DNA from: Escherichia coli
Lineage (GTDB): Bacteria > Pseudomonadota > Gammaproteobacteria > Enterobacterales > Enterobacteriaceae
Strand: one strand, 5' to 3'
Assembly: GCF_013122565.1 (NCBI RefSeq)
Contig: NZ_CP053258.1
DNA: 64,000 nucleotides
Numbering within the stretch: position 1 is the stretch's first letter; each line of letters starts with the position of its first letter. The notes beneath the pieces are model-generated. The model saw nothing but the letters and a program-made list of their open reading frames with translations. It had not been told where the DNA came from and searched no databases. A program made the position numbers and the translations under genes. Below, in pieces: positions 3,359 to 60,890 of the stretch.

Positions 3359-3453
3359 TGGCGGAAGATCACAGGAGTCGAACCTGCCCGGGACCGCTGG
3401 CGGCCCCAACTGGATTTGAAGTCCAGCCGCCTCACCGGAGACGACGATCTTCC
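3359..3453 (-). tRNA. selC: tRNA-Sec (selenocysteine, anticodon UCA)
   Basis: Reverse complement is GGAAGATCGTCGTCTCCGGTGAGGCGGCTGGACTTCAAATCCAGTTGGGGCCGCCAGCGGTCCCGGGCAGGTTCGACTCCTGTGATCTTCCGCCA, 95 nt, with the long variable arm and encoded CCA typical of E. coli selC. Confidence 0.95.
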
Positions 3454-18277: not shown

Positions 18278-20666
<2,389 letters not shown>

Positions 20667-24415: not shown

Positions 24416-24422
24416 AGAAACT

Positions 24423-24446
24423 CGCCGGATGAAAAGTCATCCGGCG
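24423..24446. terminator. Hairpin between convergent pyrE and slmA
   Basis: cgccggatg-aaaagt-catccggcg inverted repeat. Confidence 0.5.
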
Positions 24447-24451
24447 TCATA

Positions 24452-26976: not shown

Positions 26977-27651
26977 GTGAAGGTGAAAAACAATGCACAG
27001 CTGTTGATGCCGCGCGAAAAAATGCTGAAGTTTGGTATTAGCGCCTTAACGGATGTCGAGCTGCTGGCGCTATTTCTGCGTACCGGAACGCGCGGTAAAG
27101 ATGTATTAACCCTGGCAAAAGAGATGCTGGAGAATTTCGGCTCTCTTTATGGCTTGTTAACCTCTGAATATGAACAATTTAGTGGTGTTCATGGAATTGG
27201 CGTAGCGAAATTTGCCCAGTTAAAGGGGATTGCTGAATTGGCGCGGCGTTACTACAACGTGCGGATGCGTGAAGAAAGCCCTTTACTCAGCCCGGAGATG
27301 ACGCGGGAATTTTTACAAAGCCAGCTCACGGGTGAGGAGCGGGAGATCTTTATGGTGATCTTTCTCGACTCACAACACCGGGTTATAACGCATAGCCGTC
27401 TTTTTTCCGGCACGCTAAACCATGTTGAAGTCCATCCTCGGGAAATTATCCGCGAAGCGATAAAAATAAACGCCTCGGCGCTGATCCTTGCACATAATCA
27501 CCCTTCGGGTTGTGCTGAACCCAGTAAAGCGGATAAACTCATTACTGAACGGATAATAAAGAGTTGTCAGTTCATGGATTTACGCGTGCTCGACCATATC
27601 GTGATTGGGCGTGGAGAGTATGTTTCTTTTGCCGAACGCGGCTGGATTTAA
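26977..27651 (+). CDS. radC: RadC/YicR-family JAB-domain protein
   Basis: 224-aa ORF with JAMM-like motif HNHPSG. Confidence 0.85.
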
Positions 27652-27846
27652 CCCGCTATGCGCGATCCTTCGGGATCTTTGTCTGTTCGGGACTTGAGCA
27701 CATCGCTGAGTCAGCGTATACTACGCCACCTTTGAGAATCTCGGGTTTGGCATTTGGGCCTGGCAATCGAGAGTTCACATAGAACTGCGATGACCGGGCT
27801 GTAAAGCCTGACGAGGCGCCAATACCCCATACGAAGCTCGAGCTAA

Positions 27847-28104
<258 letters not shown>

Positions 28105-28121
28105 GTACTTAGAGGAAATAA

Positions 28122-28292
<171 letters not shown>

Positions 28293-28389
28293 TTCTCGCT
28301 TTGATGTAACGAAAAACCTCGCTCCGGCGGGGTTTTTTGTTATCTGCTTGCCCCCATATTGACTGCATCTGTTCATTCCTGGAGATGCT

Positions 28390-29199
28390 ATGCCTGAATT
28401 ACCCGAAGTTGAAACCAGCCGTCGCGGCATAGAACCGCATCTCGTTGGTGCAACCATTCTTCATGCGGTGGTGCGCAACGGACGCTTGCGCTGGCCGGTT
28501 TCAGAAGAGATCTACCGTTTAAGCGACCAACCAGTGCTTAGCGTGCAGCGGCGGGCTAAATATCTGCTGCTGGAGCTGCCTGAGGGCTGGATTATCATTC
28601 ATTTAGGGATGTCTGGCAGCCTGCGCATCCTTCCAGAAGAACTTCCCCCTGAAAAGCATGACCATGTGGATTTGGTGATGAGCAACGGTAAAGTGCTGCG
28701 CTACACCGATCCGCGCCGCTTTGGTGCCTGGCTGTGGACCAAAGAGCTGGAAGGGCATAATGTGCTGGCCCATCTTGGACCGGAGCCGCTTAGCGACGAT
28801 TTCAACGGTGAGTATCTGCATCAGAAGTGCGAGAAGAAAAAAACGGCGATTAAACCGTGGCTGATGGATAACAAGCTGGTGGTAGGGGTAGGGAATATCT
28901 ATGCCAGCGAATCACTGTTTGCGGCGGGGATCCATCCGGATCGGCTGGCGTCATCACTGTCGCTGGCAGAGTGTGAATTGTTAGCTCGGGTGATTAAAGC
29001 GGTGTTGCTGCGTTCGATTGAGCAGGGTGGTACAACTCTGAAAGATTTTCTGCAAAGTGATGGTAAACCGGGCTATTTCGCGCAGGAATTGCAGGTTTAC
29101 GGGCGAAAAGGCGAGCCGTGTCGGGTGTGCGGTACGCCGATTGTGGCGACTAAACATGCGCAGCGGGCAACGTTTTATTGTCGGCAGTGTCAGAAGTAA
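28390..29199 (+). CDS. mutM: formamidopyrimidine-DNA glycosylase
   Basis: 269-aa ORF starting MPELPEVE; C-terminal zinc finger CRVCGTPI...CRQC. Confidence 0.95.
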
Positions 29200-29237
29200 T
29201 TCATGCGCGCCGGATGGCATACCATCCGGCATAAACG

Positions 29238-31002
<1,765 letters not shown>

Positions 31003-31326
31003 AGTAAATAGCTGACTTATGGATGTGCTGGGGATTCTATGTATTTAGCTGTGGCTTTACCATTACTTTTCCCGTTTTTGACTTAAATAGCAATTTACCC
31101 GCCAATTCTTGCTGAACATCTATACTTTTTTTGTATTTTTATGCGATTCATTGATTTCTGCAGTACGTGCAGGAAGGAATCGCAGAGCAACAGTAAAAGA
31201 ATATGGTCACTAATGATTTTATTTGATTGATTTCTTTATTGAAAATCAACAATATGCTTAAAAATCATTCGGGTCGGATTGCCGCGAAAGAAGTGATACA
31301 CTAGCGCGTCAATATCAGTGCGGTAT

Positions 31327-31365
31327 CAGTATTCAGGTAGCTGTTGAGCCTGGGGCGGTAGCGTG
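31327..31365 (+). promoter_or_regulatory. JUMPStart element containing the ops site (RfaH recruitment) in the waaQ leader
   Basis: cagtattcaggtagctgttgagcctggGGCGGTAGCGTG; the 12-nt ops consensus GGCGGTAGCGTG is at 31354-31365. Confidence 0.7.
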
Positions 31366-31438
31366 CTTTTTCTGCTTCACCTTAATCGGATAATCTCAAC
31401 AAAAAGAGTTACTTGTGGATAAGCCATTTCGAAGAATT

Positions 31439-32473
31439 TTGCTCATTAAGATGCGTTTTCATGGGGATATGTTATTGACTACTCCCGTCATTAGTTCGCT
31501 GAAAAAAAATTACCCTGACGCAAAAATCGATGTGCTGCTTTATCAGGACACCATCCCGATCCTGTCTGAAAATCCAGAGATTAACGCGCTCTACGGCATA
31601 AAAAATAAAAAAGCAAAAGCCTCAGAAAAAATTGCCAACTTTTTTCATCTCATCAAGGTATTACGTGCCAATAAGTATGACCTTATCGTCAATCTTACCG
31701 ATCAATGGATGGTTGCTATACTGGTTCGCTTATTAAATGCCCGTGTGAAAATTTCCCAGGATTATCATCATCGGCAGTCTGCTTTTTGGCGTAAAAGTTT
31801 CACCCATTTGGTGCCGTTGCAGGGTGGAAATGTGGTGGAAAGTAACTTATCCGTGCTGACACCATTGGGACTTGATTCGTTGGTGAAGCAGACAACCATG
31901 AGTTACCCGCCTGCAAGCTGGAAACGTATGCGTCGCGAACTTGATCACGCTGGTGTTGGACAAAATTATGTGGTTATCCAACCTACGGCGCGGCAAATCT
32001 TCAAATGCTGGGACAACGCCAAGTTTTCCGCTGTGATTGATGCCTTACATGCTCGTGGTTATGAAGTCGTTCTGACGTCCGGCCCAGATAAAGACGATCT
32101 GGCCTGCGTCAATGAAATTGCGCAGGGATGCCAGACGCCACCAGTAACGGCCCTGGCTGGAAAGGTGACCTTCCCGGAACTTGGTGCGTTAATCGATCAT
32201 GCGCAGCTGTTTATTGGCGTTGATTCCGCACCGGCGCATATTGCCGCTGCAGTTAATACGCCGCTGATATCGCTGTTTGGTGCGACAGACCATATTTTCT
32301 GGCGTCCCTGGTCAAATAACATGATTCAATTCTGGGCGGGAGATTATCGGGAAATGCCAACGCGCGATCAGCGTGACCGAAATGAGATGTATCTTTCGGT
32401 TATTCCGGCGGCAGATGTCATTGCTGCTGTCGATAAATTACTGCCCTCCTCCACGACAGGTACGTCGTTATGA
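31439..32473 (+). CDS. waaQ: LPS heptosyltransferase III (GT9)
   Basis: Frame opens at a GTG at 31415 (352 aa); the TTG at 31439 gives 344 aa, matching my recollection of the K-12 WaaQ length; start is uncertain. Confidence 0.8.
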   Translation: MLIKMRFHGDMLLTTPVISSLKKNYPDAKIDVLLYQDTIPILSENPEINALYGIKNKKAKASEKIANFFHLIKVLRANKYDLIVNLTDQWMVAILVRLLNARVKISQDYHHRQSAFWRKSFTHLVPLQGGNVVESNLSVLTPLGLDSLVKQTTMSYPPASWKRMRRELDHAGVGQNYVVIQPTARQIFKCWDNAKFSAVIDALHARGYEVVLTSGPDKDDLACVNEIAQGCQTPPVTALAGKVTFPELGALIDHAQLFIGVDSAPAHIAAAVNTPLISLFGATDHIFWRPWSNNMIQFWAGDYREMPTRDQRDRNEMYLSVIPAADVIAAVDKLLPSSTTGTSL

Positions 32474-33594
32474 TCGTTGCTTTTTGTTTATATAAATATT
32501 TTCCCTTTGGCGGTTTGCAGCGCGATTTTATGCGTATTGCTCAGACAGTCGCCGCCCGAGGTCATCATGTTCGGGTTTATACCCAGTCGTGGGAAGGCGA
32601 ATGCCCTGATGTATTTGAACTGATCAAAGTGCCGGTTAAATCGCATACCAATCACGGGCGCAATGCGGAGTATTTTGCCTGGGTGCAAAAACATTTACGC
32701 GAACATCCCGTCGATAAAGTCGTTGGATTCAACAAAATGCCGGGGCTGGACGTTTATTATGCCGCTGATGTTTGTTATGCCGAGAAAGTAGCGCAGGAAA
32801 AAGGCTTTTTCTATCGCCTGACGTCACGTTATCGCCATTATGCCGCCTTTGAGCGGGCAACCTTCGAACAGGGCAAGCCGACACAGCTGCTGATGCTGAC
32901 AGATAAGCAAATCGCCGATTTCCAGAAACATTATCAGACTGAAGCGGAGCGTTTTCATATTCTGCCACCGGGAATTTATCCTGATCGTAAATATAGCCAG
33001 CAGCCAGCTAATAGCCGTGAAATCTTCCGTAAGAAGAATGGAATAACCGAACAACAATATTTATTGTTGCAGGTCGGTTCAGACTTCACGCGTAAAGGTG
33101 TCGATCGTTCCATTGAAGCACTTGCTTCGTTACCGGATTCGCTGCGCCACAACACATTGCTATATGTTGTTGGGCAGGATAAACCGCGAAAATTTGAGGC
33201 GCTGGCAGAAAAACGCGGCGTGCGCAGTAATGTTCACTTCTTCTCGGGGCGCAACGATGTCTCGGAATTAATGGCGGCGGCGGATTTATTACTGCATCCT
33301 GCCTACCAGGAAGCTGCGGGAATTGTGCTGCTGGAAGCGATTACTGCAGGATTACCGGTACTAACAACTGCCGTTTGCGGCTATGCGCATTATATTGTCG
33401 ACGCCAATTGCGGCGAGGCTATTGCTGAGCCATTCCGCCAGGAAACATTGAATGAGATTTTACGCAAAGCGTTAACACAATCTTCATTGCGCCAGGCCTG
33501 GGCGGAAAATGCGCGACATTATGCTGATACACAAGATTTATACAGTCTGCCAGAGAAAGCGGCGGATATCATAACGGGTGGTCTGGATGGTTGA
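32470..33594 (+). CDS. waaG: LPS core glucosyltransferase I (GT4)
   Basis: 374-aa ORF; overlaps the waaQ stop. Confidence 0.9.
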
Positions 33595-34384
33595 ACTTAA
33601 AGAGCCGTTTGCCACGTTATGGCGCGGAAAAGATCCTTTTGAGGAAGTTAAAACTTTGCAGGGTGAGGTATTTCGTGAACTGGAAACTCGCCGTACTCTG
33701 CGCTTTGAAATGGCGGGCAAAAGCTATTTTCTCAAATGGCATCGCGGCACGACCCTGAAAGAGATAATCAAAAATTTACTCTCATTGCGGATGCCAGTAT
33801 TAGGCGCAGACCGCGAATGGAATGCGATTCATCGACTGCGGGATGTCGGCGTTGATACTATGTATGGGGTGGCATTTGGCGAAAAAGGCATGAATCCGCT
33901 GACCAGAACTTCATTTATTATTACCGAAGATCTGACACCAACCATAAGTCTGGAAGATTACTGTGCTGACTGGGCGACCAACCCACCAGATGTTCGCGTA
34001 AAGCGTATGCTTATTAAGCGTGTCGCGACGATGGTGCGCGATATGCATGCTGCGGGCATTAACCACCGTGACTGTTATATCTGTCATTTCCTGTTGCACT
34101 TGCCTTTTTCCGGTAAGGAAGAGGAGTTAAAAATTTCGGTAATTGACCTGCACCGGGCGCAGCTTCGCACGCGCGTTCCACGTCGTTGGCGGGATAAAGA
34201 TTTGATTGGTTTATATTTCTCATCAATGAATATTGGTCTGACGCAGAGAGATATCTGGCGATTTATGAAGGTTTATTTTGGGATGCCTTTACGCGATATT
34301 TATAGACTTGAGATTGATTTACTTAAAAAGGCAAGGATTAAAGCAGGAAAAATAGAAGCAAGAACAATAAGAAAAAACTTGTAA
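33587..34384 (+). CDS. waaP: LPS core heptose(I) kinase
   Basis: ATG at 33587 gives 265 aa starting [12 protein letters not shown]; kinase-like HRDCY motif. Confidence 0.9.
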
Positions 34385-34416
34385 ATAGTATTTTATTACA
34401 AAAAGGGATTCTAAAA

Positions 34417-35397
34417 TTGTTGAAATATAGAAACTTCGTTGCTAAGAAGAAAAATTTATACCAAAACGAAGTGTCGTATGTTAAAAATTTACATATTGCA
34501 CTATGCTTTGACCGTGAATTCATAATGCCAGCGGGTGTTGCATTATATTCAATTATATCCAACAATAGACATATTAACCTTCATTTTCACCTTCTTATAT
34601 CAGGCATAGAAGAAAAGGAGTGTTCAGCTTTTTACGAACTAGAAGGTCCTAATACATCAATATCTGTATATTATATAACTGATAAATTTGACATTAATCC
34701 GGATACATTAGTTCTTGGTATTCCTTTATCAACATGTTTACGTTTTTTAATCCCAGAAGTTATTGATGATAAAATAAATAAGATACTTTATCTTGACTGT
34801 GATGTCATATGTAATGGTCCTTTAGATGAACTGGTTGATTATAATTTAAATGCTGATATTGCATATGTAATTCCAGATTCGCCAGAAATGCAAGAACGTG
34901 TAAAAAAATTAGACTATGGCATTGAGTTTATTAATTATTTTAATGCCGGGGTTATGCTTATTAATACCAGCGAATGGAAAAAAAATAATATAACACAAAA
35001 AGCGTTAGAAAAGATCAACAGTGGAAAAGTATATAGGTATGCAGATCAGGATGTGCTCAATATTTTACTTAATGGACGAGTGCATTACCTTGATAAGAAG
35101 TACAATAATAAGACAACATTGTCAGTACGATGTGATGAAGAACAAAAAAACTTGCCCAACACAATTATAATGCATTATGTTACCCAGAATAAACCATGGT
35201 ACAAAATATTTAGAGCACAAAATTTTGATCATTATTTTTCAAATTCTCCTTGGAAGAACCATAAAAGAAATCTAGCTCCATCATCAAGTGAGATTAGGTT
35301 AAAGTCTAAAGTTTTTTGGCTAGAAGGAAAATATTGTAAAGCCATTTCTTATTATTATAAGTATTTACTTGTTAAATTATTTGGCTTAAAGATTTAG
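34417..35397 (+). CDS. waaS: GT8-family glycosyltransferase at the waaS position of a K-12-type core cluster
   Basis: Positionally equivalent to K-12 waaS; the protein shares the DxD region (LYLDCDVICNGPL), FNAGVMLIN, DQDVLN and KPW motifs with the downstream waaO and waaJ products; frame begins at TTG, first in-frame ATG is codon 37, so the start is uncertain. Confidence 0.6.
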   Translation: MLKYRNFVAKKKNLYQNEVSYVKNLHIALCFDREFIMPAGVALYSIISNNRHINLHFHLLISGIEEKECSAFYELEGPNTSISVYYITDKFDINPDTLVLGIPLSTCLRFLIPEVIDDKINKILYLDCDVICNGPLDELVDYNLNADIAYVIPDSPEMQERVKKLDYGIEFINYFNAGVMLINTSEWKKNNITQKALEKINSGKVYRYADQDVLNILLNGRVHYLDKKYNNKTTLSVRCDEEQKNLPNTIIMHYVTQNKPWYKIFRAQNFDHYFSNSPWKNHKRNLAPSSSEIRLKSKVFWLEGKYCKAISYYYKYLLVKLFGLKI

Positions 35398-35410
35398 CTG
35401 GAATGAAATT

Positions 35411-36490
35411 ATGAAAATAGCCTTTATTGGCGAAGCTGTTTCTGGATTTGGCGGCATGGAAACAGTCATTCGTGATGTTATTACTACCTTCAGGCAACAA
35501 CATATCCAAAGTGAAATTTTTTTCTTTTGTCGTAATGACAAAATGGATAAGGGATGGCTGGAGGGTATTAAGTACTCGTGTTCATTTTCCAATATTCGCT
35601 TAGGTTTTTTGCGTCGCGCGAAACATATTCATGCTTTAAGCAAATGGTTTCAGGATTATCAGCCAGATGTTGTTATTTGTATTGACATGATCTCGTGTTT
35701 GTATGCGGCCAAAGCTCGTAAAAAATCGGGGATTGATGTACCTGTATTTTCATGGCCGCATTTTTCTTTAGATCATAAAAAACATGCCGAATATATCACC
35801 TGTGCAGACTATCATTTAGCCATCAGCTCTGGTATTAAACAGCAAATGATTAGCCGGGGTGTGCCGGAATCGACAATAAACGTTATTTTTAATCCCGTCG
35901 AGGCGAAAAATTCAGTCATTCCTGCACCCGGGGAAGGCGAAACGGCAACATTCATTTATGTTGGGCGCATGAAATTTGAAGGCCAAAAGCGCGTAAAAGA
36001 TCTGCTTGATGGCTTATCACAAGTGCAAGGTGACTGGAAACTTCATGTATTGGGAGATGGCTCCGATTTCGAAAAATGCCAGGCTTATGGTAGAGAATTA
36101 AATATTGATGATCGAATTGTCTGGTATGGTTGGCAACAACATCCCTGGAAATTAGTTCAGCAAGATATTAAAAAAGTGAGTGCATTATTACTCACGTCAT
36201 CTTTTGAAGGTTTCCCAATGACTCTACTTGAAGCCTTGTCGTGGGGGATCCCTTGTATCAGTGCAGATTGCGTCTCCGGGCCTGCTGATATCATTCAGCC
36301 TGATGTTAATGGTCATTTATATCAACCGGGAGATATTGCTGGTTTTGTAACTCTTCTAAATAAATATATAGCAGGTGAAATTCATATCGAACATGAAAAA
36401 ATTCCTGCGTCGATCGATAAGTTTTATCAATTAAAGTATTACGATAGATTACATAATATAATTATTTCTGCTATTTCCCGGAGGAAATAA
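35411..36490 (+). CDS. waaB: LPS core galactosyltransferase (GT4)
   Basis: 359-aa ORF, same length as K-12 WaaB. Confidence 0.85.
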   Translation: MKIAFIGEAVSGFGGMETVIRDVITTFRQQHIQSEIFFFCRNDKMDKGWLEGIKYSCSFSNIRLGFLRRAKHIHALSKWFQDYQPDVVICIDMISCLYAAKARKKSGIDVPVFSWPHFSLDHKKHAEYITCADYHLAISSGIKQQMISRGVPESTINVIFNPVEAKNSVIPAPGEGETATFIYVGRMKFEGQKRVKDLLDGLSQVQGDWKLHVLGDGSDFEKCQAYGRELNIDDRIVWYGWQQHPWKLVQQDIKKVSALLLTSSFEGFPMTLLEALSWGIPCISADCVSGPADIIQPDVNGHLYQPGDIAGFVTLLNKYIAGEIHIEHEKIPASIDKFYQLKYYDRLHNIIISAISRRK

Positions 36491-37509
36491 TGCAGCAGGT
36501 ATTATTCCAGGAAACTGAGTTTCTAAATACAGTTATTGATTATAATCATAAAGTAGAAACGGAAAATCCTTGTCTGGACATCGCGTATGGAACTGACAAA
36601 AACTTTCTATTTGGTTGCGGAATTTCGATTGCTTCAATATTAAAGTATAATGAAGGAAGTCGGTTGTGTTTCCACATTTTTACTGATTATTTTGGTGATG
36701 ATGATCGTAAGTATTTTGATGCCCTAGCGTTACAGTATAAAACCAGAATTAAAATATATCTGATTAATGGTGACCGACTACGCTCATTGCCTAGCACAAA
36801 GAACTGGACTCATGCAATATATTTTCGTTTTGTTATTGCAGATTACTTTATTAATAAGGCGGCTAAAGTCCTTTATCTGGATGCAGATATCATTTGTCAG
36901 GGGACTATTGAGCCACTAATTAAATTCTCATTTCCTGACGATAAAGTCGCAATGGTTGTTTCTGAAGGGCAAGCTGACTGGTGGGAAAAACGCGCCCATT
37001 CGTTAGGTGTTGCGGGAATTGCTAAAGGTTACTTTAACTCCGGTTTTTTATTGATTAATACTGCCAAATGGGCGGCTCAGCAGGTTTCTGCACGAGCCAT
37101 TGCAATGCTAAATGAGCCAGAAATAATCAAAAAAATAACACATCCTGATCAGGATGTATTAAATATGTTGCTGGCAGATAAACTTATTTTCGCTGATATT
37201 AAATATAACACCCAGTTTAGCTTAAATTATCAACTAAAAGATAACTTTATAAACCCAATTACCAACGATACTATTTTTATCCATTATATCGGGCCAACCA
37301 AGCCCTGGCATGATTGGGCCTGGGATTATCCTGTATCACAAGTATTTATGGAGGCAAAAAATGTTTCGCCATGGAAGAATACGGCGTTGCTGAAACCGAA
37401 CAATAGCAATCAATTAAGATATAGCGCTAAACATATGCTTAAAAAACATAGATATCTAAAAGGGTTTAGCAACTATCTTTTTTATTTTATTGAAAAGATA
37501 AAGCATTAA
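36490..37509 (+). CDS. waaO: LPS core alpha-1,3-glucosyltransferase (GT8)
   Basis: 339-aa ORF; GT8 motifs LYLDADIICQG, DQDVLN. Confidence 0.85.
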   Translation: MQQVLFQETEFLNTVIDYNHKVETENPCLDIAYGTDKNFLFGCGISIASILKYNEGSRLCFHIFTDYFGDDDRKYFDALALQYKTRIKIYLINGDRLRSLPSTKNWTHAIYFRFVIADYFINKAAKVLYLDADIICQGTIEPLIKFSFPDDKVAMVVSEGQADWWEKRAHSLGVAGIAKGYFNSGFLLINTAKWAAQQVSARAIAMLNEPEIIKKITHPDQDVLNMLLADKLIFADIKYNTQFSLNYQLKDNFINPITNDTIFIHYIGPTKPWHDWAWDYPVSQVFMEAKNVSPWKNTALLKPNNSNQLRYSAKHMLKKHRYLKGFSNYLFYFIEKIKH

Positions 37510-37548
37510 AACTGGGAAACTATAAAGTAATGATATAAGGGTAGCATT

Positions 37549-38565
37549 GTGGACTCATTTCCTGCCATAGAGATAGATAAAGTTAAAGCCTGGGATTTTC
37601 GGCTGGCTAATATAAATACTTGTGAATGTTTAAATGTTGCCTATGGTGTCGATGCTAATTATCTTGATGGTGTAGGTGTTTCCATCACATCAATTGTCCT
37701 AAATAATCGACATATTAGTCTTGATTTTTATATTATTGCTGATGTTTATAATGATGCTTTTTTTCAAAAAGTTGCAAAGCTTGCAGAGCAATACCAATTA
37801 AGAATCACGTTATATAGAATTAACACTGATAAGCTCCAGTGCTTGCCTTGTACACAGGTCTGGTCAAGAGCAATGTACTTCCGTTTATTTGCATTTCAAT
37901 TATTGGGTTTAACTCTTGATCGTTTGCTTTATCTTGATGCAGATGTTGTTTGTAAAGGCGATATTAGCCAACTATTGCATCTGGATTTAAACGGAGCGGT
38001 TGCTGCTGTTGTTAAAGATGTTGACCCAATGCAGGAAAAGGCGGCATCTAGGTTGTCTGATCCTGAATTAGTTGGGCAGTACTTTAATTCCGGTGTCGTT
38101 TATTTAGATTTAAAAAAATGGGCTAACGCAAAACTAACCGAAAAAGCGTTGTCTATTCTTATGAGTAAAGATAATTTTTATAAATACCCTGATCAGGATG
38201 TTATGAATGTCTTACTGAAAGGAATGACAATATTTTTGCCTCGTGAGTATAATACAATTTATACAATTAAAAGTGAATTAAAGGACAAAACACATCAAAA
38301 CTATAAAAAGCTGATTACAGAAAATACTCTTCTTATTCATTATACAGGTGCAACTAAACCGTGGCACAAATGGGCAATTTATCCATCGGTAAAATACTAC
38401 AAAATAGCTTTAGACAATTCCCCCTGGAAAGATGACTCTCCACGAGATGCGAAATCAATTATTGAATTCAAAAAAAGATATAAACATCTTTTAGTGCAAC
38501 ATCACTATATCTCAGGAATTATAGCAGGAGTCTGTTATCTTTGCCGAAAATATTACCGTAAATAA
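37549..38565 (+). CDS. waaJ: LPS core alpha-1,2-glucosyltransferase (GT8)
   Basis: 338-aa ORF from a GTG start; GT8 motifs LYLDADVVCKG, DQDVMN. Confidence 0.85.
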   Translation: MDSFPAIEIDKVKAWDFRLANINTCECLNVAYGVDANYLDGVGVSITSIVLNNRHISLDFYIIADVYNDAFFQKVAKLAEQYQLRITLYRINTDKLQCLPCTQVWSRAMYFRLFAFQLLGLTLDRLLYLDADVVCKGDISQLLHLDLNGAVAAVVKDVDPMQEKAASRLSDPELVGQYFNSGVVYLDLKKWANAKLTEKALSILMSKDNFYKYPDQDVMNVLLKGMTIFLPREYNTIYTIKSELKDKTHQNYKKLITENTLLIHYTGATKPWHKWAIYPSVKYYKIALDNSPWKDDSPRDAKSIIEFKKRYKHLLVQHHYISGIIAGVCYLCRKYYRK

Positions 38566-38582
38566 CATTTAACTGGTTTATT

Positions 38583-39281
38583 ATGATTCAGAAGAGCAAG
38601 ATCAAAGACTTGGTTGTTTTTACCGATGAAAAGAATTCAAAGTACCTCAATGTATTAAATGACTTCTTGTCTTATAATATAAATATCATCAAGGTTTTTC
38701 GTTCTATTGATGATACAAAAGTTATGCTTATTGATACCGATTACGGTAAATTGATTCTTAAGGTTTTTTCTCCGAAAGTTAAGCGTAACGAACGTTTCTT
38801 TAAGTCTCTGTTAAAAGGTGATTATTACGAACGCCTTTTTGTGCAAACTCAAAAAGTACGAAATGAAGGGTTAAATACACTCAATGATTTTTATTTATTG
38901 GCTGAACGGAAAACCTTACGATTTGTCCATACTTATATCATGATCATCGAGTATATTGATGGCATAGAGTTATGTGATATGCTCGATATTGATGATTCGC
39001 TAAAAAATAAAATTCAACAATCAATTAATGCCTTGCATCAACATGGCATGGTTTCTGGCGACCCTCATCGTGGTAATTTCATTATAAAAAATGGTGAGGT
39101 CCGAATTATTGATCTCTCTGGAAAACGTGCTTCAGCGCAGCGTAAAGCGAAAGATCGTATTGACTTAGAGCGTCATTATGGTATTAAAAATGAGATTAAA
39201 GATGTAGGCTATTATCTTTTAGTATATCGTAAAAAAATGCGCAATTTTATGCGGCGTTTGAAAGGGAAACCAGCGCGCTAA
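38583..39281 (+). CDS. waaY: LPS core heptose(II) kinase
   Basis: 232-aa ORF, same length and position as K-12 WaaY. Confidence 0.8.
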   Translation: MIQKSKIKDLVVFTDEKNSKYLNVLNDFLSYNINIIKVFRSIDDTKVMLIDTDYGKLILKVFSPKVKRNERFFKSLLKGDYYERLFVQTQKVRNEGLNTLNDFYLLAERKTLRFVHTYIMIIEYIDGIELCDMLDIDDSLKNKIQQSINALHQHGMVSGDPHRGNFIIKNGEVRIIDLSGKRASAQRKAKDRIDLERHYGIKNEIKDVGYYLLVYRKKMRNFMRRLKGKPAR

Positions 39282-39349
39282 AAATTCACAAAATTACATG
39301 TATTCACCAGAACAGTTTTAAGCGGAGTTATTTATTTCACAGGTTTATC

Positions 39350-40201
39350 ATGAAGAATATTAGATATATTGACAAAAAAGATGTTGAAAACCTGATTGAA
39401 AATAAAACATCTGATGATGTTATTATTTTTCTTTCTGGCCCTACATCGCAAAAAACACCTTTGTCAGTATTACGTAAAAAGGATATTATTGCTGTCAATG
39501 GTTCTGCGCAATATCTGTTAAGTCATAATATCGTTCCTTTTATATATATAGTTACAGATGTCCGCTTTTTACATCAGCGTCGTGATGATTTTTATAAATT
39601 TAGCCAGAGAAGTCGTTATACCATAGTAAACGTCGACGTTTATGAACACGCTTCCAAAGAAGATAAACTTTATGTCCTCCAGAACTGCCTCGTATTACGG
39701 TCCTTTTATCGCCGAGAAAAAGGCGGTTTGATAAAGAAGATAAAATTTAATATATTAAGTCAGATTCATAAAGAACTGCTGATCTCTGTACCGTTCTCTA
39801 AAAAAGGTCGTCTGGTCGGATTTTGCAAGGACATTAGTCTTGGTTATTGCTCATGCCATACTATTGCCTTTGCTGCAATTCAAATAGCATATACACTTAA
39901 GTATGCGCGGATTATTTGTTCTGGTCTTGATTTAACTGGTAGTTGTTCTCGTTTCTATGACGAAAATAATAATCCCATGCCCTCGGAATTGAGTAAGGAT
40001 TTATTCAAAATCTTGCCATTTTTCCGTTTTATGCGTGATAATGTTGAAGATATTAATATCTATAATTTATCAGATGATACCGCAATTTCTTACGATGTAA
40101 TTCCATTTATTAAATTTCAAGATATCAGTAGAGAAGAATCAAAAGATAAGACAAGAAAAAAAATGCAATATAGAACTTCAACTGATTCTTATGCTAATTA
40201 A
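39350..40201 (+). CDS. waaZ: LPS core biosynthesis protein WaaZ
   Basis: 283-aa ORF, same length and position as K-12 WaaZ. Confidence 0.75.
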   Translation: MKNIRYIDKKDVENLIENKTSDDVIIFLSGPTSQKTPLSVLRKKDIIAVNGSAQYLLSHNIVPFIYIVTDVRFLHQRRDDFYKFSQRSRYTIVNVDVYEHASKEDKLYVLQNCLVLRSFYRREKGGLIKKIKFNILSQIHKELLISVPFSKKGRLVGFCKDISLGYCSCHTIAFAAIQIAYTLKYARIICSGLDLTGSCSRFYDENNNPMPSELSKDLFKILPFFRFMRDNVEDINIYNLSDDTAISYDVIPFIKFQDISREESKDKTRKKMQYRTSTDSYAN

Positions 40202-40233
40202 TCATCCTGAAACTAAAGTGATATGGTATAAAA

Positions 40234-41307
40234 ATGCGTTTAGGAACTTTTCACAAAAAGAAAAGATTTTATATAAACAAAATCAAAATTAATTTCCTTT
40301 CTTTTTTATTTCGTAAGAAAATAAATAATCAAATTACAGAACCAGCGCAAGTTAATTCATGTCTTATTATTCATGATAATAATAAGCTCGGTGATCTAAT
40401 TGTATTAAGTTCGATTTATCGTGAACTTTATAGTAGAGGGGTTAAAATAACCATTCTTACAAATAGAAAGGGTGGGGAGTTTCTCTCTAACAATAAAAAT
40501 ATATTTGAGTTCTGTATTAAAGAATCAACTGGTTTTCTTAAAATGCTTACTCTATGTAAGCATCTGCAGGATTTACAGTTCGATATTGTATTAGACCCCT
40601 TTGAAACTATGCCCTCATTTAAGCATAGCTTAATATTATCAAGTTTAAAAGATTCTTACATTCTGGGTTTTGATCATTGGTATAAGCGTTACTATTCATT
40701 TTACCATCCTCACGATGAATGTTTAAAAGAACATATGAGTACACGAGCAATAGAAATACTGAAGCATATTTATGGTGAGGGTAAATTTTCCACCGACTAC
40801 GACTTGCATTTACCAGTAGATGTTGAAGATAAAATAATAGAATTTATTGGAGATACAAGAATAGTCATTATTAATCCATTAGGTGCAAAAAAAATATGCC
40901 GTCTTACGTTTGAGCAAATAAAAGTTATATATCAAGAAGTGAAAACACACTTTGAAAATTATCGGATTATATTTACCGGGTTACCGCAAGATTTATTGAC
41001 AATACCAATACTTGAAATCGAAACACTACCATTTGATGAGTTTATTTATACCGTTGCGTTGACCAAGTATAGTGATTTTGTCATTTCTGTTGATACAGCT
41101 CTTGTTCATATCGCTGCGGCTTATCATAAACCAACGCTTGCATTTTACCCTAATTCACGTACTCCGGAATATCCCTCGCATTTAATTTGGTCCCCGAATC
41201 ATCATAAATCTATACAAATAGTATCCCCAACATATACGGTAAAAGATATCGATACTGAAACTTTAACTAATTCAGTAAAGAGATTAAGTTGTATAGATAA
41301 GAAGTGA
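40234..41307 (+). CDS. waaU: LPS heptosyltransferase IV (GT9; WaaU/WaaK)
   Basis: 357-aa ORF, same length and position as K-12 WaaU. Confidence 0.8.
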   Translation: MRLGTFHKKKRFYINKIKINFLSFLFRKKINNQITEPAQVNSCLIIHDNNKLGDLIVLSSIYRELYSRGVKITILTNRKGGEFLSNNKNIFEFCIKESTGFLKMLTLCKHLQDLQFDIVLDPFETMPSFKHSLILSSLKDSYILGFDHWYKRYYSFYHPHDECLKEHMSTRAIEILKHIYGEGKFSTDYDLHLPVDVEDKIIEFIGDTRIVIINPLGAKKICRLTFEQIKVIYQEVKTHFENYRIIFTGLPQDLLTIPILEIETLPFDEFIYTVALTKYSDFVISVDTALVHIAAAYHKPTLAFYPNSRTPEYPSHLIWSPNHHKSIQIVSPTYTVKDIDTETLTNSVKRLSCIDKK

Positions 41308-41338
41308 GTTTTAACTCACTTCTTAAACTTGTTTATTC

Positions 41339-42598
41339 TTAATTAATTGTATTGTTACGATTATTAATAACGAGTAAGAGCACTATAGCGGATATAATAA
41401 TAATTGGAATGCTGCGTGCCCATATGATCACATCACTGAGTCCAATCCCCACAATGCCAAGCGTTAATATCAACAAACCCAAAGCTCGTTTTTTATATGC
41501 TATATAAAATAGTGAAAAATAGAGGAAAAGTGTGGAAAAAATTCCCATCAGACCTTTCAGTGACCCTGCTTCAATTATCTCATTATGTAGATGTACGTTA
41601 GAAAACTCCAATGCCCCTCTTAGCCTGTTGTGTTCTGCAACTAACAAATTCATACTTTCAGCGCGCGACTCTGCAGATCTAAATGAAAAAGGTGACTTTT
41701 TGAATATATCCAAACCAATTTCGTACATTGCCAGCCTTGCACCTAAGGAAGTCACGCTATTAGCATTTGTATAACTGTTTAAATCATTTAATGCTTCATT
41801 ATAGCGATTCTGTATTGGTTTATTAAATATAATTACAATACTCGCCAATATAGCAATTAGAAGAAAAATAGCGGAAGTAATTTTCTTAGGTGATTTATTA
41901 TAATAAGCTATTAATGTAACAGCACAAATTCCAGGAAACAGGAGTAGTGTTGCTCTGGTTTGTGTTAGTGCCAGAACATAAAGTACCGCGCAACTATTTA
42001 ATAAAAATAAAAAAGGATGGTTTTTCTTAGTATAAAGAATCGCAACACCACTAACTATCCCTATTAGCATTGTTGAATATGCCGCTCCTGTTGCCGTTCC
42101 TACACCAAAAGAAATACGATCATATTCATGAATACTATTAATATACATTGCATATCCAGCAATTATAAATGACAGAGAATATAAAATGTATAATATACTC
42201 TCTTTTTTATTTTTTAGCTGGCTAGTTAGTGCTAAAAAAACAATAAAAGAACCAAATATAAATATTTTGGCAGTATTTAAATAACTATGGTAAGTAGCAC
42301 GATATGGCGAGTTATCTACTTTAAATACAGAATACCAAATTAAATCAAGAAACCCTATAAAAAATATAGAAAGGGGCAGAATAATATTTTTTATATTGTA
42401 ATTTATTTGTCTGCCACGTAAAATTAGTGCTAATAAGCAAGTTATAGCAGTGATGTTATACATCTTTATGCTGAAATTGTTATCGACGAATGCAATTATT
42501 AATGAAAAAAAACATAATATATAAGTTATTATCTCTAAAATCATAGATGATTGCAGAGTGTAAGGTTTCCATGAATGAAGTTTAATGAAGGTTGGCAT
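41339..42598 (-). CDS. waaL: O-antigen ligase
   Basis: 419-aa polytopic ORF, convergent with waaU. Confidence 0.9.
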   Translation of the reverse strand: MPTFIKLHSWKPYTLQSSMILEIITYILCFFSLIIAFVDNNFSIKMYNITAITCLLALILRGRQINYNIKNIILPLSIFFIGFLDLIWYSVFKVDNSPYRATYHSYLNTAKIFIFGSFIVFLALTSQLKNKKESILYILYSLSFIIAGYAMYINSIHEYDRISFGVGTATGAAYSTMLIGIVSGVAILYTKKNHPFLFLLNSCAVLYVLALTQTRATLLLFPGICAVTLIAYYNKSPKKITSAIFLLIAILASIVIIFNKPIQNRYNEALNDLNSYTNANSVTSLGARLAMYEIGLDIFKKSPFSFRSAESRAESMNLLVAEHNRLRGALEFSNVHLHNEIIEAGSLKGLMGIFSTLFLYFSLFYIAYKKRALGLLILTLGIVGIGLSDVIIWARSIPIIIISAIVLLLVINNRNNTIN

Positions 42599-42607
42599 GT
42601 TTTACCT

Positions 42608-43567
42608 TTATAATGATGATAACTTTTCCAAAACTGTTTGACCGTTGAGATTATTTAAACTTTTCCCCGGAGCCCTACAAACCATCTGATTCTTCCCATA
42701 CCCACCAATTAATCCCGGATCGGTTGGTCCATAAACCGTGATATTCGGTCTATCCAGTGCCGCCGTTAAATGGCTTAACCCCGTATCCACCGACACTACA
42801 AATTTAGCCCCGGCCAGCACGCGGGCAACGCCTTCCAGACTCATCTTCGGCAATACTTCAACATAAGCAAATCCTTCCGCCAGTCGTTTCGCCCGTTCTT
42901 CCTCATGCGGCGCGCCCCACGGAAGTTTAATCCGTATTCCTGAATCAGCCAGTAAACCAATCAATTCTCGCCAGTGTTCTTCCGGCCAGTGTTTATCATC
43001 ACGGGTCGTCGCATGAAGAAATACGGCATATTCGCCAGCATCTGTAGGCAGGTTCGTCAGGAAATGCTGTGCAATAGCATAATCGCCCTGGGTTTGCGGT
43101 TTGCTATAGCCCAAACTTTTGGCAAACAGTTCGCGGGTGCGTTCTACGGCGTGCTGCTGTTTTGCAATATGATGTTTACGATTGTAAAACAGGCTGGCTA
43201 AAGGTTCGCGAGCGGTTTGCCAGTCCATTCCATGCTTTACGCCATGCGCCAGACGCGTCACCAGCGCCGCGCTTTTTACCAGCCCCTGAGCATCGATAAC
43301 TGCGTCATAGTTCTCTGCTTGTAGCGCTTCACGAAACGCTTTGCGTTCCGCTTTTATGGGGGCCGAGAACCAGGCTTTACGCCAGCGACGTATTGCCACA
43401 GGAATAACTCGCTCAACGGCGGCGTGCCAGGAAGGAATTTGTGCGAACCCTTCTTCCACCACCCAGTCAAACTTAATCCCTGGGATTGCCTGCTGGGCAT
43501 CAGTGAGTGAGGGCAACGTATGGAGAACATCGCCCATCGACGATGTTTTAACGATCAAAACCCGCAT
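42608..43567 (-). CDS. waaC: LPS heptosyltransferase I
   Basis: 319-aa ORF starting MRVLIVKTSSMGDVLH. Confidence 0.95.
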   Translation of the reverse strand: MRVLIVKTSSMGDVLHTLPSLTDAQQAIPGIKFDWVVEEGFAQIPSWHAAVERVIPVAIRRWRKAWFSAPIKAERKAFREALQAENYDAVIDAQGLVKSAALVTRLAHGVKHGMDWQTAREPLASLFYNRKHHIAKQQHAVERTRELFAKSLGYSKPQTQGDYAIAQHFLTNLPTDAGEYAVFLHATTRDDKHWPEEHWRELIGLLADSGIRIKLPWGAPHEEERAKRLAEGFAYVEVLPKMSLEGVARVLAGAKFVVSVDTGLSHLTAALDRPNITVYGPTDPGLIGGYGKNQMVCRAPGKSLNNLNGQTVLEKLSSL

Positions 43568-43570
43568 CCG

Positions 43571-44617
43571 TCAGGCTTCCTCTTGTAACAATAGCTCGTT
43601 GAGTTCTTCCAGTACGCGCTGGGGAGTAATGTCGATCAAGCTCTGGTGATAACCCTCCGCAGCGTCACCTTTACGCACTTTGTGATAGCCGGTAATCAGA
43701 CGGATCACGCGTGCTTTATGGGATAGCGGCGGTGTGAAGTCCGGGCTACTCGGACCATACAGGGCAACCAGCGGACGATTGAGCGCCGCCGCAACGTGCA
43801 TCAGGCCAGAATCGTTAGTGACAATGGCTTTACAGGCTGCAATCAGGATAACCGCTTGATCAAGCTGTGTTTCCCCCGCCAGGTTCCGACACCATGCCTG
43901 CTGCTCGGTATTCAAAGCGGCAAGAATCTCATTGCCCGCTTCATGATCTTTCGCCGAGCCAAACAGAACCACCTGATAACCTTCATCAATCAGCTGCTTT
44001 GCCAGCTCCGCATAGTGGTAGTGTGGCCAGCGTTTTGCCGGACCAAACTCTGCACCCGGGCAAAAACCAATCATCGGACGTTCTGATGAAAGCGAAAATT
44101 GATTACAGGTATATGATTTTTCACCTTCGCTCACCTGCAACTGCGGCCATAACAATGGCTGCGGCAGATCTTGTGCGGTACGCATAATGCCTTTGTCATA
44201 GGCCAGCGCGACATAGCGTTCCACCATTAGCGGCCAGGCTTCTTTATCGAGCACACGTACATCGTTGAGTAAACCGTAGCGCATCTCGCCGCGCCAGCCG
44301 GTGCGATGAGGAATACCCGCGAAGAAAGGCACTAATGCAGATTTGAAGGAGTTGGGTAAGACGTAGGCGCGGTCGTAGCGCTTTTCACGCAGGCTATGAC
44401 CCAGTTTGCGGCGTTCGCCGATTTCCAGCGCTCCGTGACCGAGAGGCATAGGGATAGCTTCGTTAACTTCCGGCATCCGCGATAATAATGGACGGCACCA
44501 TGCAGGTGCCATCACGTCGATTATCGCCTGGGGATAGCGCGCCTGGAGCGTGCGATAGAGACTTTGCGACATCATCATGTCGCCAACCCAAGACGGGCCG
44601 ATCACCAGTATTTTCAT
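43571..44617 (-). CDS. waaF: LPS heptosyltransferase II
   Basis: 348-aa ORF starting MKILVIGPSWVGDMMMSQ. Confidence 0.95.
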   Translation of the reverse strand: MKILVIGPSWVGDMMMSQSLYRTLQARYPQAIIDVMAPAWCRPLLSRMPEVNEAIPMPLGHGALEIGERRKLGHSLREKRYDRAYVLPNSFKSALVPFFAGIPHRTGWRGEMRYGLLNDVRVLDKEAWPLMVERYVALAYDKGIMRTAQDLPQPLLWPQLQVSEGEKSYTCNQFSLSSERPMIGFCPGAEFGPAKRWPHYHYAELAKQLIDEGYQVVLFGSAKDHEAGNEILAALNTEQQAWCRNLAGETQLDQAVILIAACKAIVTNDSGLMHVAAALNRPLVALYGPSSPDFTPPLSHKARVIRLITGYHKVRKGDAAEGYHQSLIDITPQRVLEELNELLLQEEA

Positions 44618-44626
44618 GCAGAGCTC

Positions 44627-45559
44627 TTATGCGTCGCGATTCAGCCAGGCCATATATTCCGTTACACCTTCGGCAACGGTTTTGAACGGTTTGTCGTAAC
44701 CCGCCGCGCGCAGATTTGTCAGATCTGCCTGAGTGAACGCCTGGTAGCGGCCTTTCAGCTTATCCGGGAACGGAATGTATTCGATCTGGCCTTTCTTGTG
44801 ATAAGCCAGCGTTGCATCGGCTACTGCCTGGAAGGATTCTGCACGACCGGTGCCGAGGTTGAAGATACCGGAAACGCCATTTTCCAGGAACCACAGGTTG
44901 ACGTCTGCCACGTCGCCTACGTAAACGAAATCGCGTTTGAAGTTTTCGCTACCTTCGAACAGCTTCGGTGATTCACCGTTGTTAAGCTGGGTGTTGAGAT
45001 GGAAAGCGACGCTCGCCATGCTGCCTTTATGGCCTTCACGCGGCCCATAGACGTTGAAGTAGCGGAAGCCAACAATCTGTGAATTTGCTTCCGGCAGGAT
45101 TTGACGAACATATTCATCAAACAGGAATTTTGAGTAACCGTAGACGTTCAACGGTTTTTCGTACTCGCGGGATTCAATAAAGTCGGAGGTGCGTCCGCCG
45201 TAAGTGGCTGCGGAAGAGGCGTACAGGAACGGGATTTCACGCTCCAGGCAGTAGTGCAGCAGCTCCTTGGAGTATTGATAGTTGTTATCCATCATATACT
45301 TGCCGTCCCACTCGGTGGTGGAAGAGCACGCGCCTTCGTGGAAAATCGCTTCGACATCGCCGAACTCTTCGCCAGCCATAATCTGGATCAGGAAGTCTTC
45401 CTTATCCATATAGTCCGCGATATCCAGATCCACCAGGTTCACAAACTTGGTGCCGTCTTTCAGGTTGTCCACCACCAGAATATCGGTGATGCCTTTATCA
45501 TTCAGGGCTTTAACGATGTTGCTGCCGATAAAGCCCGCGCCGCCGGTAACGATGATCAT
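44627..45559 (-). CDS. hldD: ADP-L-glycero-D-manno-heptose 6-epimerase
   Basis: 310-aa ORF with Rossmann motif [16 protein letters not shown]. Confidence 0.95.
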
Positions 45560-59235: not shown

Positions 59236-60890
59236 TAAGGAATCATCCACGTTAAGACATAGGCCTGAAGCGTGGTGATCACGCCCACCATACAGGTGAA
59301 GATCAGGCTGTGTTTGACAGTAAAGCGGAACAAATCAGACTCTTTGCCCACCAGGCCTACCGCCGCACAGGCGATAGCGATAGATTGTGGGGAGATCATC
59401 TTACCGGTGACGCCACCGGTGGTATTGGCGGCAACCAGCAACAGATCAGAGACGCCAATTTGTTGTGCTGCGGTGGCTTGCAGCGCGGCGAACAGGGCGT
59501 TAGATGAGGTATCCGACCCGGTCAGGAATACACCCAGCCAGCCGAGGAACGGCGAGAAGAAGGTGAATGCATGACCGGTGTGCGCCAGTGCGAGCGCCAG
59601 TGTTGATGACAGTCCGGAATAGTTCGAAATAAAGGCGAACGCCAGCACCATACCGATGGAGTAGATAGGCAGAGCCAGTTCTTTCAGCGTGCTGCCGAAG
59701 GTGCTGATAGCGTCAGATGGTTTCATCTTCAGCCAGACAATCGAGAGCAGGGCAGCAAAAAGAATGGCGGTACCGGTGGCAGAGAACCAGTCGAACTTAA
59801 ACACGGCGGCATACGCTGTCGCCTCGCTGACCACTGGCGGCATACGGGCAACCAGTTTATCGAGGTACGGCACCGGAATATTGATCACCCACTCATACAG
59901 CGCGCCACCCGATGCGAACAGGGCTTTAAACGGCGGGATACTCCACAGTGTTACGGTAGCGGTCAGGAACAGGAACGGTGTCCAGGCACGTAATACCTGA
60001 CCCGCGGTGTAACCGGTGTGGGCCAGCGTCATATCAACCTGTGACGCCCCCAAATCACCAAAACGGAATACGCGCACTGGCTGCCAGCGTTTGAGGAACA
60101 GCGTCAGGCAGAGCAGTGATACCAGCGAAGAGATAATGTCCGGCAGCTCCGGCCCAATGAAGTTAGAGCTAAGGTACTGAGCGATGGCAAACGAGCCGCC
60201 CGCAACCACGACCGCAGGCCACGTCTCTTTGATACCGCGCCAGCCGTCCATAATCGCCATGATCCAGAACAGCACGATAATGGTCATAAACGGTAGCTGC
60301 CGCCCCACCATCTGACCAATCTCAAAGCTGTCGATACCTGTTACCTGTCCGGCAACCAGGATTGGAATGCCCATCGCGCCAAATGCCACTGGCGCGGTGT
60401 TAACAATCAGGCACAGCCCGGCGGCGTACAGTGGTTTAAAGCCCAGACCGACCAGCAATGCGGCGGTAATTGCTACCGGTGCGCCAAAGCCTGCAGCTCC
60501 TTCGAGGAACGCGCCGAAACAGAAACCGACGATCAGCATTTGCAGGCGCTGGTCTGGGGTTATCGAAAGAATAGACGAGCGAATGATGTCAAACTGCCCG
60601 GTTTTCACCGAGATCTTATAGACGAACACCGCTGCAATAATGATCCACGCGATGGGCCACAAACCATAGAAGAAGCCATAAACCACCGAGGCCAGCGCGT
60701 TAGCGACCGGCATTTTATAGAACAGCAAAGCCACGGCAAGGGCGATTGCCACCGTCCATGAGGCGGCAACGTATCCTTTCAGTTTGAGCTTAATCAGCGC
60801 AAAGAAGAAAAACAGGATGGGAAGCGATGCTATCAGGCTGGAAAGCCAGATATTCCCAGCGGGATCGTAGTTTTGTTGCCAGAGATTCAT
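59235..60890 (-). CDS. lldP: L-lactate permease
   Basis: ATG at 60890 gives 551 aa starting [13 protein letters not shown]; polytopic. Confidence 0.9.

Follow-up and report, generated by a model that had tools for sequence, protein, structure and literature searches.

The waaA–waaQ interval and the waaQ operon

The window, by which we mean the whole 64-kb stretch of Escherichia coli DNA that was analyzed, carries the divergent genes waaA and waaQ, and the 412-nt spacer between them contains a JUMPStart/ops element (Table 1). The 352-aa waaQ ORF, which matched NCBIfam NF007742 at 714 bits over residues 1–351, opens an operon of 10 genes and 9.9 kb that is headed by the element and runs to waaU; beyond it lie waaL–waaC–waaF–rfaD in convergent orientation. 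This waaQ-to-waaU operon had been proposed in a first-pass annotation, and ORFs, family matches and co-linearity with K-12 and WEC all bore it out. The fourth operon gene is not waaS: it encodes a family-8 glycosyltransferase (GT8), and comparison of its product with K-12 WaaS found no similarity. The remaining outer-core genes of the operon are K-12-like. GC content drops from ~50% to 29–37% over positions 34000–43000, in the distal operon; such AT-rich DNA is the kind that RfaH counter-silences (PMC9765446). The rfaH gene is not encoded within the 64-kb window.

Among complete E. coli genomes, the 15-kb operon region had a best full-length match of 98.0% identity. The segment waaA–waaQ–waaG–waaP was 98.4% identical to an R1-core strain and 87.9% identical to K-12, and the segment from waaB through rfaD shared 96% identity with K-12. 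The locus is thus a mosaic (27542–34294 vs. 35410–45546), which places a recombination junction near 34300–35400. The GT8 allele was present in 502 of the 5426 complete E. coli genomes, and is annotated as two fragments in WEC. Elsewhere in the window a tRNA-Sec gene (selC; 3363–3453, minus strand, Rfam 83.8 bits) lies between MFS transporter genes, and quick inspection saw no island-like insertion beside it. The interval between pyrE and slmA is only 34 nt in the window (24417–24450); in FDAARGOS_497 it holds a 1.3-kb insertion with a gene for a 'reverse transcriptase family protein'.

Table 1. Features in and around the waaQ leader, in window coordinates
Feature	Position	Strand	Basis and remarks
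waaA (kdtA)	29725–31002	−	425-aa ORF; aligns with annotated waaA of FDAARGOS_497, WEC and K-12
Extended −10-like motif TGaTACACT	31294–31302	+	Found by eye; 6 nt upstream of K-12-equivalent rirA/waaQ 5′ end
RirA counterpart (K-12 b4760, 73 nt)	31309–31381	+	K-12 annotation mapped via shared 39-mer
Possible long imperfect RNA hairpin, ops in 3′ arm	31317–31368	+	Hypothetical; MFE −19.3 kcal/mol
JUMPStart	31327–31365	+	RF01707; 39/39 identical to K-12 waaQ leader, 33/39 to K-12 rfb JUMPStart
JUMPStart hairpin	31334–31338 paired with 31348–31352, loop 31339–31347	+	Structure line of Rfam alignment
GGTAGC direct repeat, upstream copy	31336–31341	+	Found by eye; second copy 31357–31362, inside ops
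ops GGCGGTAGCGTG	31354–31365	+	Exact match; T6 = 31359, pause position T11 = 31364
T-run	31367–31371	+	Directly 3′ of ops; typical of waaQ-type leaders in 19-leader alignment
AAGAG, weak Shine-Dalgarno-like	31404–31408	+	6 nt before GTG; bases 1–3 and 5 invariant in 19 leaders
waaQ (rfaQ), heptosyltransferase III, operon gene 1	31415–32473	+	NCBIfam equivalog NF007742
Rest of operon	32470–41307	+	waaG, waaP, GT8 gene, waaB, waaO, waaJ, waaY, waaZ, waaU
Fourth operon gene, GT8	34417–35397	+	Pfam Glyco_transf_8, 168 bits
waaU, last operon gene	40234–41307	+	ORFs, family matches, co-linearity with K-12 and WEC

The ops/JUMPStart element

The 39-nt element reads CAGTATTCAGGTAGCTGTTGAGCCTGGGGCGGTAGCGTG, and its last 12 nt are the ops sequence, which agrees with the consensus GGCGGTAGnnTG at 12 of 12 positions and is the single match within the window, even with one mismatch permitted. 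Taken alone, this 12-mer match is statistically weak: with one mismatch, 0.33 matches are expected per window by chance, and 28 of 100 shuffles contained at least one. The Rfam JUMPstart covariance model (RF01707) spans exactly the 39 nt of the element with model positions 1–38 of 38, scoring 55.2 bits where the gathering threshold is 35 (E = 1.5e–11 locally, 6.4e–10 for the whole window), a match far beyond chance. The 12-nt ops and the JUMPStart-like context that the first-pass annotation had described in the waaQ leader were thus both upheld, and the element belongs to two long-known, curated families, ops and JUMPStart/RF01707. Mismatches at the ops positions critical for RfaH, which had been raised as the evidence that would speak against the assignment, were looked for and none was found; G4, G5, T6, A7 and G8, which serve contact with RfaH, and T11, which serves pausing together with G12, are all present.

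The ops sequence lies on the sense (non-template) strand, the same as waaQ, 45 nt past the K-12-equivalent transcription start site (TSS), which was transferred by homology. All five pairs of the JUMPStart hairpin form in the window, the second as A-U, where the consensus and K-12 rfb have U-A. The two GGTAGC copies, 21 nt apart, fall one in the JUMPStart hairpin and the other within ops; both were invariant throughout the collected JUMPStart alignments, in which the search pattern (including GGTAGCTG) had itself fixed them. The 8-mer GGCGGTAG has three copies in the window vs. 1.3 expected. We rejected the other two copies as ops and regard them as chance occurrences, each lacking the pause dinucleotide T11–G12 and a JUMPStart and lying inside an ORF: GGCGGTAGCGAC at 20454–20461 (plus strand), antisense within a yicG-like ORF, and GGCGGTAGGCCT at 59357–59364 (minus strand), sense within a lactate permease gene.

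The waaQ start and other leader signals

The first-pass annotation had put ops about 75 bp upstream of the waaQ coding start. We measured 61 nt from the first base of ops to the GTG at 31415 (with a gap of 49 nt between the end of ops and that GTG) and 97 nt to the ATG at 31451, which is equivalent to the annotated K-12 start; the earlier distance therefore fits neither start. That GTG was invariant in 19 of 19 aligned waaQ leaders from nine genera, and the RefSeq annotation of close relatives begins waaQ at the same codon. Judged from these comparisons, GTG 31415 is the conserved start of waaQ. The K-12 MG1655 record begins the gene at an ATG 36 nt (12 codons) further downstream, a start that is probably too short, because the conserved N-terminus would be cut off. 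The fourth base of the AAGAG motif upstream of the GTG was A in 17 of the 19 leaders.

The extended −10-like motif lies inside a block that is invariant between the window and K-12. Scanning the intergenic region with the sigma-70 consensus yielded neither a convincing promoter at the K-12-equivalent start nor a good −35, and we regard the motif as a putative extended −10 promoter. The waaQ leader transcript begins with the 73 nt of the RirA counterpart, which differs from K-12 rirA by four substitutions and a 1-nt indel. The T-run gives the waaQ leaders a composition of their own, with a mean of 4.6 T in the 7 nt after ops vs. 2.7 in other JUMPStarts among the matches listed in the survey described below.

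Conservation and distribution

The intergenic region was present in 5424 of the 5426 complete E. coli genomes; the 73-nt RirA counterpart was at least 90% identical in all 5424 carriers, and 4412 E. coli genomes had it at 99% identity or more. We then turned to 100,044 species genomes with the pattern GGTAGCTG-N6-9-GGGGCGGTAG, which leaves free ops positions 9–12 and most of the 3′ side of the hairpin, and which found at least 120 loci. Among the matches listed, 103 had the JUMPStart form (GCC before the G-run), two of these being chance-like, and 17 loci, from unrelated phyla, were without it. In the part of ops that the pattern did not constrain, C9 and T11 were constant in 101 of the 101 genuine JUMPStarts among the matches listed and positions 9–12 read CGTG in 80, whereas the 17 chance matches showed no such C9/T11/CGTG pattern. 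Hairpin pair 2 was T-A in 67 of the 103 listed elements, A-T in 17, G-T in 9 and G-C in 3, so that a standard pair was retained in 96 of 103 with four pair types, and ~5 were real mismatches; the other four hairpin pairs were fixed, or nearly so, by the survey pattern.

Contexts were sorted by tblastn with WaaQ and WaaA of the window and RfbB and GalF of K-12. Two main contexts emerged among the matches listed, leaders between waaA and waaQ and leaders between galF and the O-antigen genes. The former were found, among these matches, in E. albertii, Citrobacter, Silvania, Pluralibacter, Cedecea, Shimwellia, Kosakonia, Pectobacterium, Brenneria and Serratia. In Enterobacteriaceae, residue 1 of WaaQ (GTG-initiated) falls at +50 to +61 from ops G1 (Citrobacter, Silvania, Pluralibacter, Cedecea, Shimwellia, Kosakonia and E. 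albertii), with the window at 61.

Enterobacterial JUMPStarts also turned up on contigs filed under Arthrobacter, Erysipelotrichia, Peptococcaceae, Flavobacterium and Lachnospiraceae, several of which also carry galF or rfbB 96–100% identical to the E. coli protein. To judge by these sequences, such non-enterobacterial contigs most likely reflect contamination or mis-binning in public assemblies. On IncY and IncFIB plasmids of E. coli and Citrobacter we observed IS-flanked galF–JUMPStart–O-antigen gene clusters; plasmids are therefore a further vehicle for RfaH-dependent polysaccharide loci.

Predicted function as an RfaH loading site

We hold, with a probability of about 93%, that this JUMPStart/ops of the waaQ leader works as an RfaH loading site. 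Sequence, position, strand, family membership and conservation of the element were established here, and pausing, RfaH binding, RfaH dependence and an RfaH-binding leader RNA come from the literature on the identical K-12 sequence. In that literature, ops acts as a consensus pause that leaves the RNA 3′ end at U11, and RfaH recognizes a small hairpin in the non-template strand from which T6 is flipped out; substitutions at G4, G5, A7 and G8 abolished RfaH recruitment in vitro, those at C3 and T6 lowered it ~3-fold, and T11G, as would fit a role in pausing, strongly reduced activation by RfaH in vivo (Zuber et al. 2018, PMC5995543). According to reviews, the waaQ and rfb operons depend on RfaH, which acts via the ops/JUMPStart of their 5′ UTRs (PMC6358824, PMC8745692 and PMC5736990). 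Folding the 12-nt ops DNA hairpin gave a marginal −0.9 kcal/mol, as expected for a protein-stabilized structure, and was uninformative; a paper on MarA mentions binding in the kdtA regulatory region and added nothing on ops.

By analogy with these studies, transcription would start near 31309, ~45 nt upstream of ops, and RNA polymerase would pause after ops with the RNA 3′ end at U11 (31364). The last base of the JUMPStart hairpin, 31352, precedes this 3′ end by 12 nt, a spacing that would suit a pause-stabilizing hairpin in the exit channel. Non-template GGCGGTAGCGTG would then be exposed in the open bubble, where its tiny hairpin may offer T6 and G5 to the N-terminal domain of RfaH; RfaH would open, remain on the polymerase, and suppress pausing and Rho- or H-NS-linked termination. 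The refolded C-terminal domain of RfaH could recruit a ribosome to a leader whose AAGAG/GTG start signal is weak, and the predicted outcome is full-length transcription of the AT-rich 9.9-kb waaQ–waaU operon.

Term-seq data for K-12 bear on the pausing step. The supplements of PMC7815308 report strong RNA 3′ ends at NC_000913.3 positions 3808184 and 3808183 (minus strand), whose coordinates and printed flanking sequence both identify them as ops G10 and U11, equivalent to 31363 and 31364 in the window; the main text of that paper does not mention waaQ, for which its supplements give the data. The site has a Rho score of 1.04 and is not a Rho termination region, and its intrinsic-terminator score is 6.28, where values of at least 3 are called suggestive (PMC7815308). 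Carried over from K-12, these ends are indirect in vivo evidence that transcripts of this leader would stop or linger exactly at the ops pause.

That the 12-mer is merely a G-rich string that arose by chance in an intergenic region has in its favor the expectation quoted above for a one-mismatch 12-mer. Against it stand the Rfam E-value of 6e–10 for the window, the identical 39-mer at the orthologous position in K-12, and conservation across genera; moreover, true chance copies of GGCGGTAG lack TG at positions 11–12, lack a JUMPStart and lie inside ORFs. We consider coincidence refuted because of the conservation data, leaving it a probability close to nil.

Possible roles of the leader RNA

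Two further proposals concern the RNA rather than the DNA. A short RirA-like leader RNA, comprising the JUMPStart hairpin and ops, might bind RfaH and limit its availability, the element thus acting as a feedback decoy instead of, or besides, a DNA loading site. Such a role is suggested by the annotation of the K-12 counterpart as the ncRNA rirA, by the abundant Term-seq 3′ ends inside the K-12 leader, and by the nature of the Rfam JUMPstart family, which is modeled as an RNA hairpin in which one pair covaries. The F plasmid, however, has ops without the upstream half of JUMPStart, the base requirements of ops were mapped on non-template DNA, RirA phenotypes stem from overexpression, and the Term-seq 3′ ends, at nt ~55–56 of the leader, disagree with the annotated 73-nt RNA. 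Overall we rate the decoy as possible but not likely, and even then it complements recruitment at the DNA level and does not replace it. In the K-12 waaQ leader, mapped 3′ ends stand at nt ~55–56 (ops G10/U11) and the annotated RirA end at nt 73; a literature search for rirA together with Term-seq found nothing.

In the other proposal ops forms part of an attenuator, in which the long hairpin (31317–31368) followed by the T-run would terminate a portion of the transcripts unless RfaH is loaded, making the short leader RNA and adding a second checkpoint. Support is comparative. The MFE structure and the RNAalifold structure from 19 waaQ leaders agree on the same long hairpin, in which 93.8% of cells are paired vs. 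at most 51% with slid partners. Its 5′ arm draws on a conserved box 4 nt upstream of the 39-mer in waaQ-type leaders, AGTGCG in the window and ACACG in Cedecea, Shimwellia and Enterobacter sp. Ag1, where substitutions keep the stem paired: by changes on one side, U-G becomes C-G and G-U becomes A-U, four times each, and by changes on both sides G-C becomes A-U twice. Pairing of ops positions 9–12 to the 5′ flank occurs in 82% of waaQ leaders vs. 31% with shuffled flanks and accompanies the T-run in 17 of the 19, and the K-12 Term-seq end carries the intrinsic-terminator score already given. Yet the hairpin is no stabler than shuffles (z-score −0.46), folding of the leader alone or with the waaQ start gave energies no better than shuffles, so that thermodynamics alone supports no structure, and a terminator scan of the intergenic region found no terminator. 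The sequence variants come from one or two related lineages and thus represent few independent events, and the ops side of the stem is under other constraints and was, in addition, fixed by the survey pattern. Finally, the K-12 3′ ends at G10/U11 precede the T-run and fall within the proposed outer stem, as expected for the ops pause and not for hairpin-plus-U termination. We judge attenuation improbable. In leaders of the O-antigen class we observed no conservation outside the 39-mer, and RNAalifold returned the small hairpin only; a closing stem tried for this class was rejected, with 61% pairing vs. 33% for shuffled flanks, a gain of only −0.17 kcal/mol, and many of the sequences related to one another.

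Combining these elements, one could picture, for the waaQ class and not clearly for the O-antigen class, an ops RNA embedded in the 3′ arm of a conserved long attenuator hairpin plus U-run that would release an abundant RirA of ~56 nt, with its 3′ end at the ops pause and not at nt 73, in a self-limiting circuit for the LPS core. We regard this picture as doubtful. If attenuation did occur, a DNA signal for RfaH loading would double as part of an RNA attenuator.

Comparison with known systems

The ops/JUMPStart of waaQ is already known, and detailed studies of its K-12 ortholog exist. RfaH-dependent expression of the LPS core governs outer-membrane integrity, resistance to serum and antibiotics, and phage receptors, and the element is the switch for it. 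As the element is textbook knowledge in K-12 and its functional core is identical here, the value of the present result lies in correct annotation and not in discovery. Comparison with other RfaH targets, which the first-pass annotation had proposed as a check, sustained the assignment: ops is identical in K-12 waaQ, K-12 rfb and the F plasmid, and agrees at 11 of 12 positions in an alpha-haemolysin (hly) plasmid.

The closest counterpart is the K-12 waaQ leader, which shares with the window the orthologous position between waaA and waaQ, the identical 39-mer, the upstream promoter block, and the T-run after ops. The two differ within the first 18 nt of the window leader, by four substitutions, and in the T-run, which is one T shorter. 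While the flanking intergenic DNA and waaQGP are only ~88% identical to K-12 (87.9% over the waaA–waaQGP segment), the block from ~31259 to the end of the T-run (31371) hardly varies, and the 39-mer with the following CTTTTT does not vary at all.

More distant is the JUMPStart between galF and rfbB of K-12, a member of the same 39-nt family (60.0 bits with RF01707) with identical ops and the same hairpin. It matches the window at 33 of 39 positions; of the six differences, a single hairpin pair, changed on both sides (U-A vs. A-U), accounts for two. The rfb (O-antigen) class, unlike the waaQ leaders, has neither conserved flanks nor a T-run, and its first gene lies farther away (+82 to +134); in K-12, ~76 nt separate ops from rfbB.

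The F plasmid carries the identical GGCGGTAGCGTG between traV and traR, inside the tra operon, and lacks the upstream half of JUMPStart there; a copy of the GGCGGTAG 8-mer in F traI was rejected as ops, being a chance copy without TG. On the alpha-haemolysin plasmid the corresponding sequence is GGCGGTAGCATG, which keeps T11 and G12, lies ~2.8 kb upstream of hlyC, and gave no match to the Rfam JUMPstart model at E ≤ 1. In chromosomal hly, by contrast, ops sits within a 39-bp JUMPStart located 634 bp upstream of hlyC (PMC6775461).
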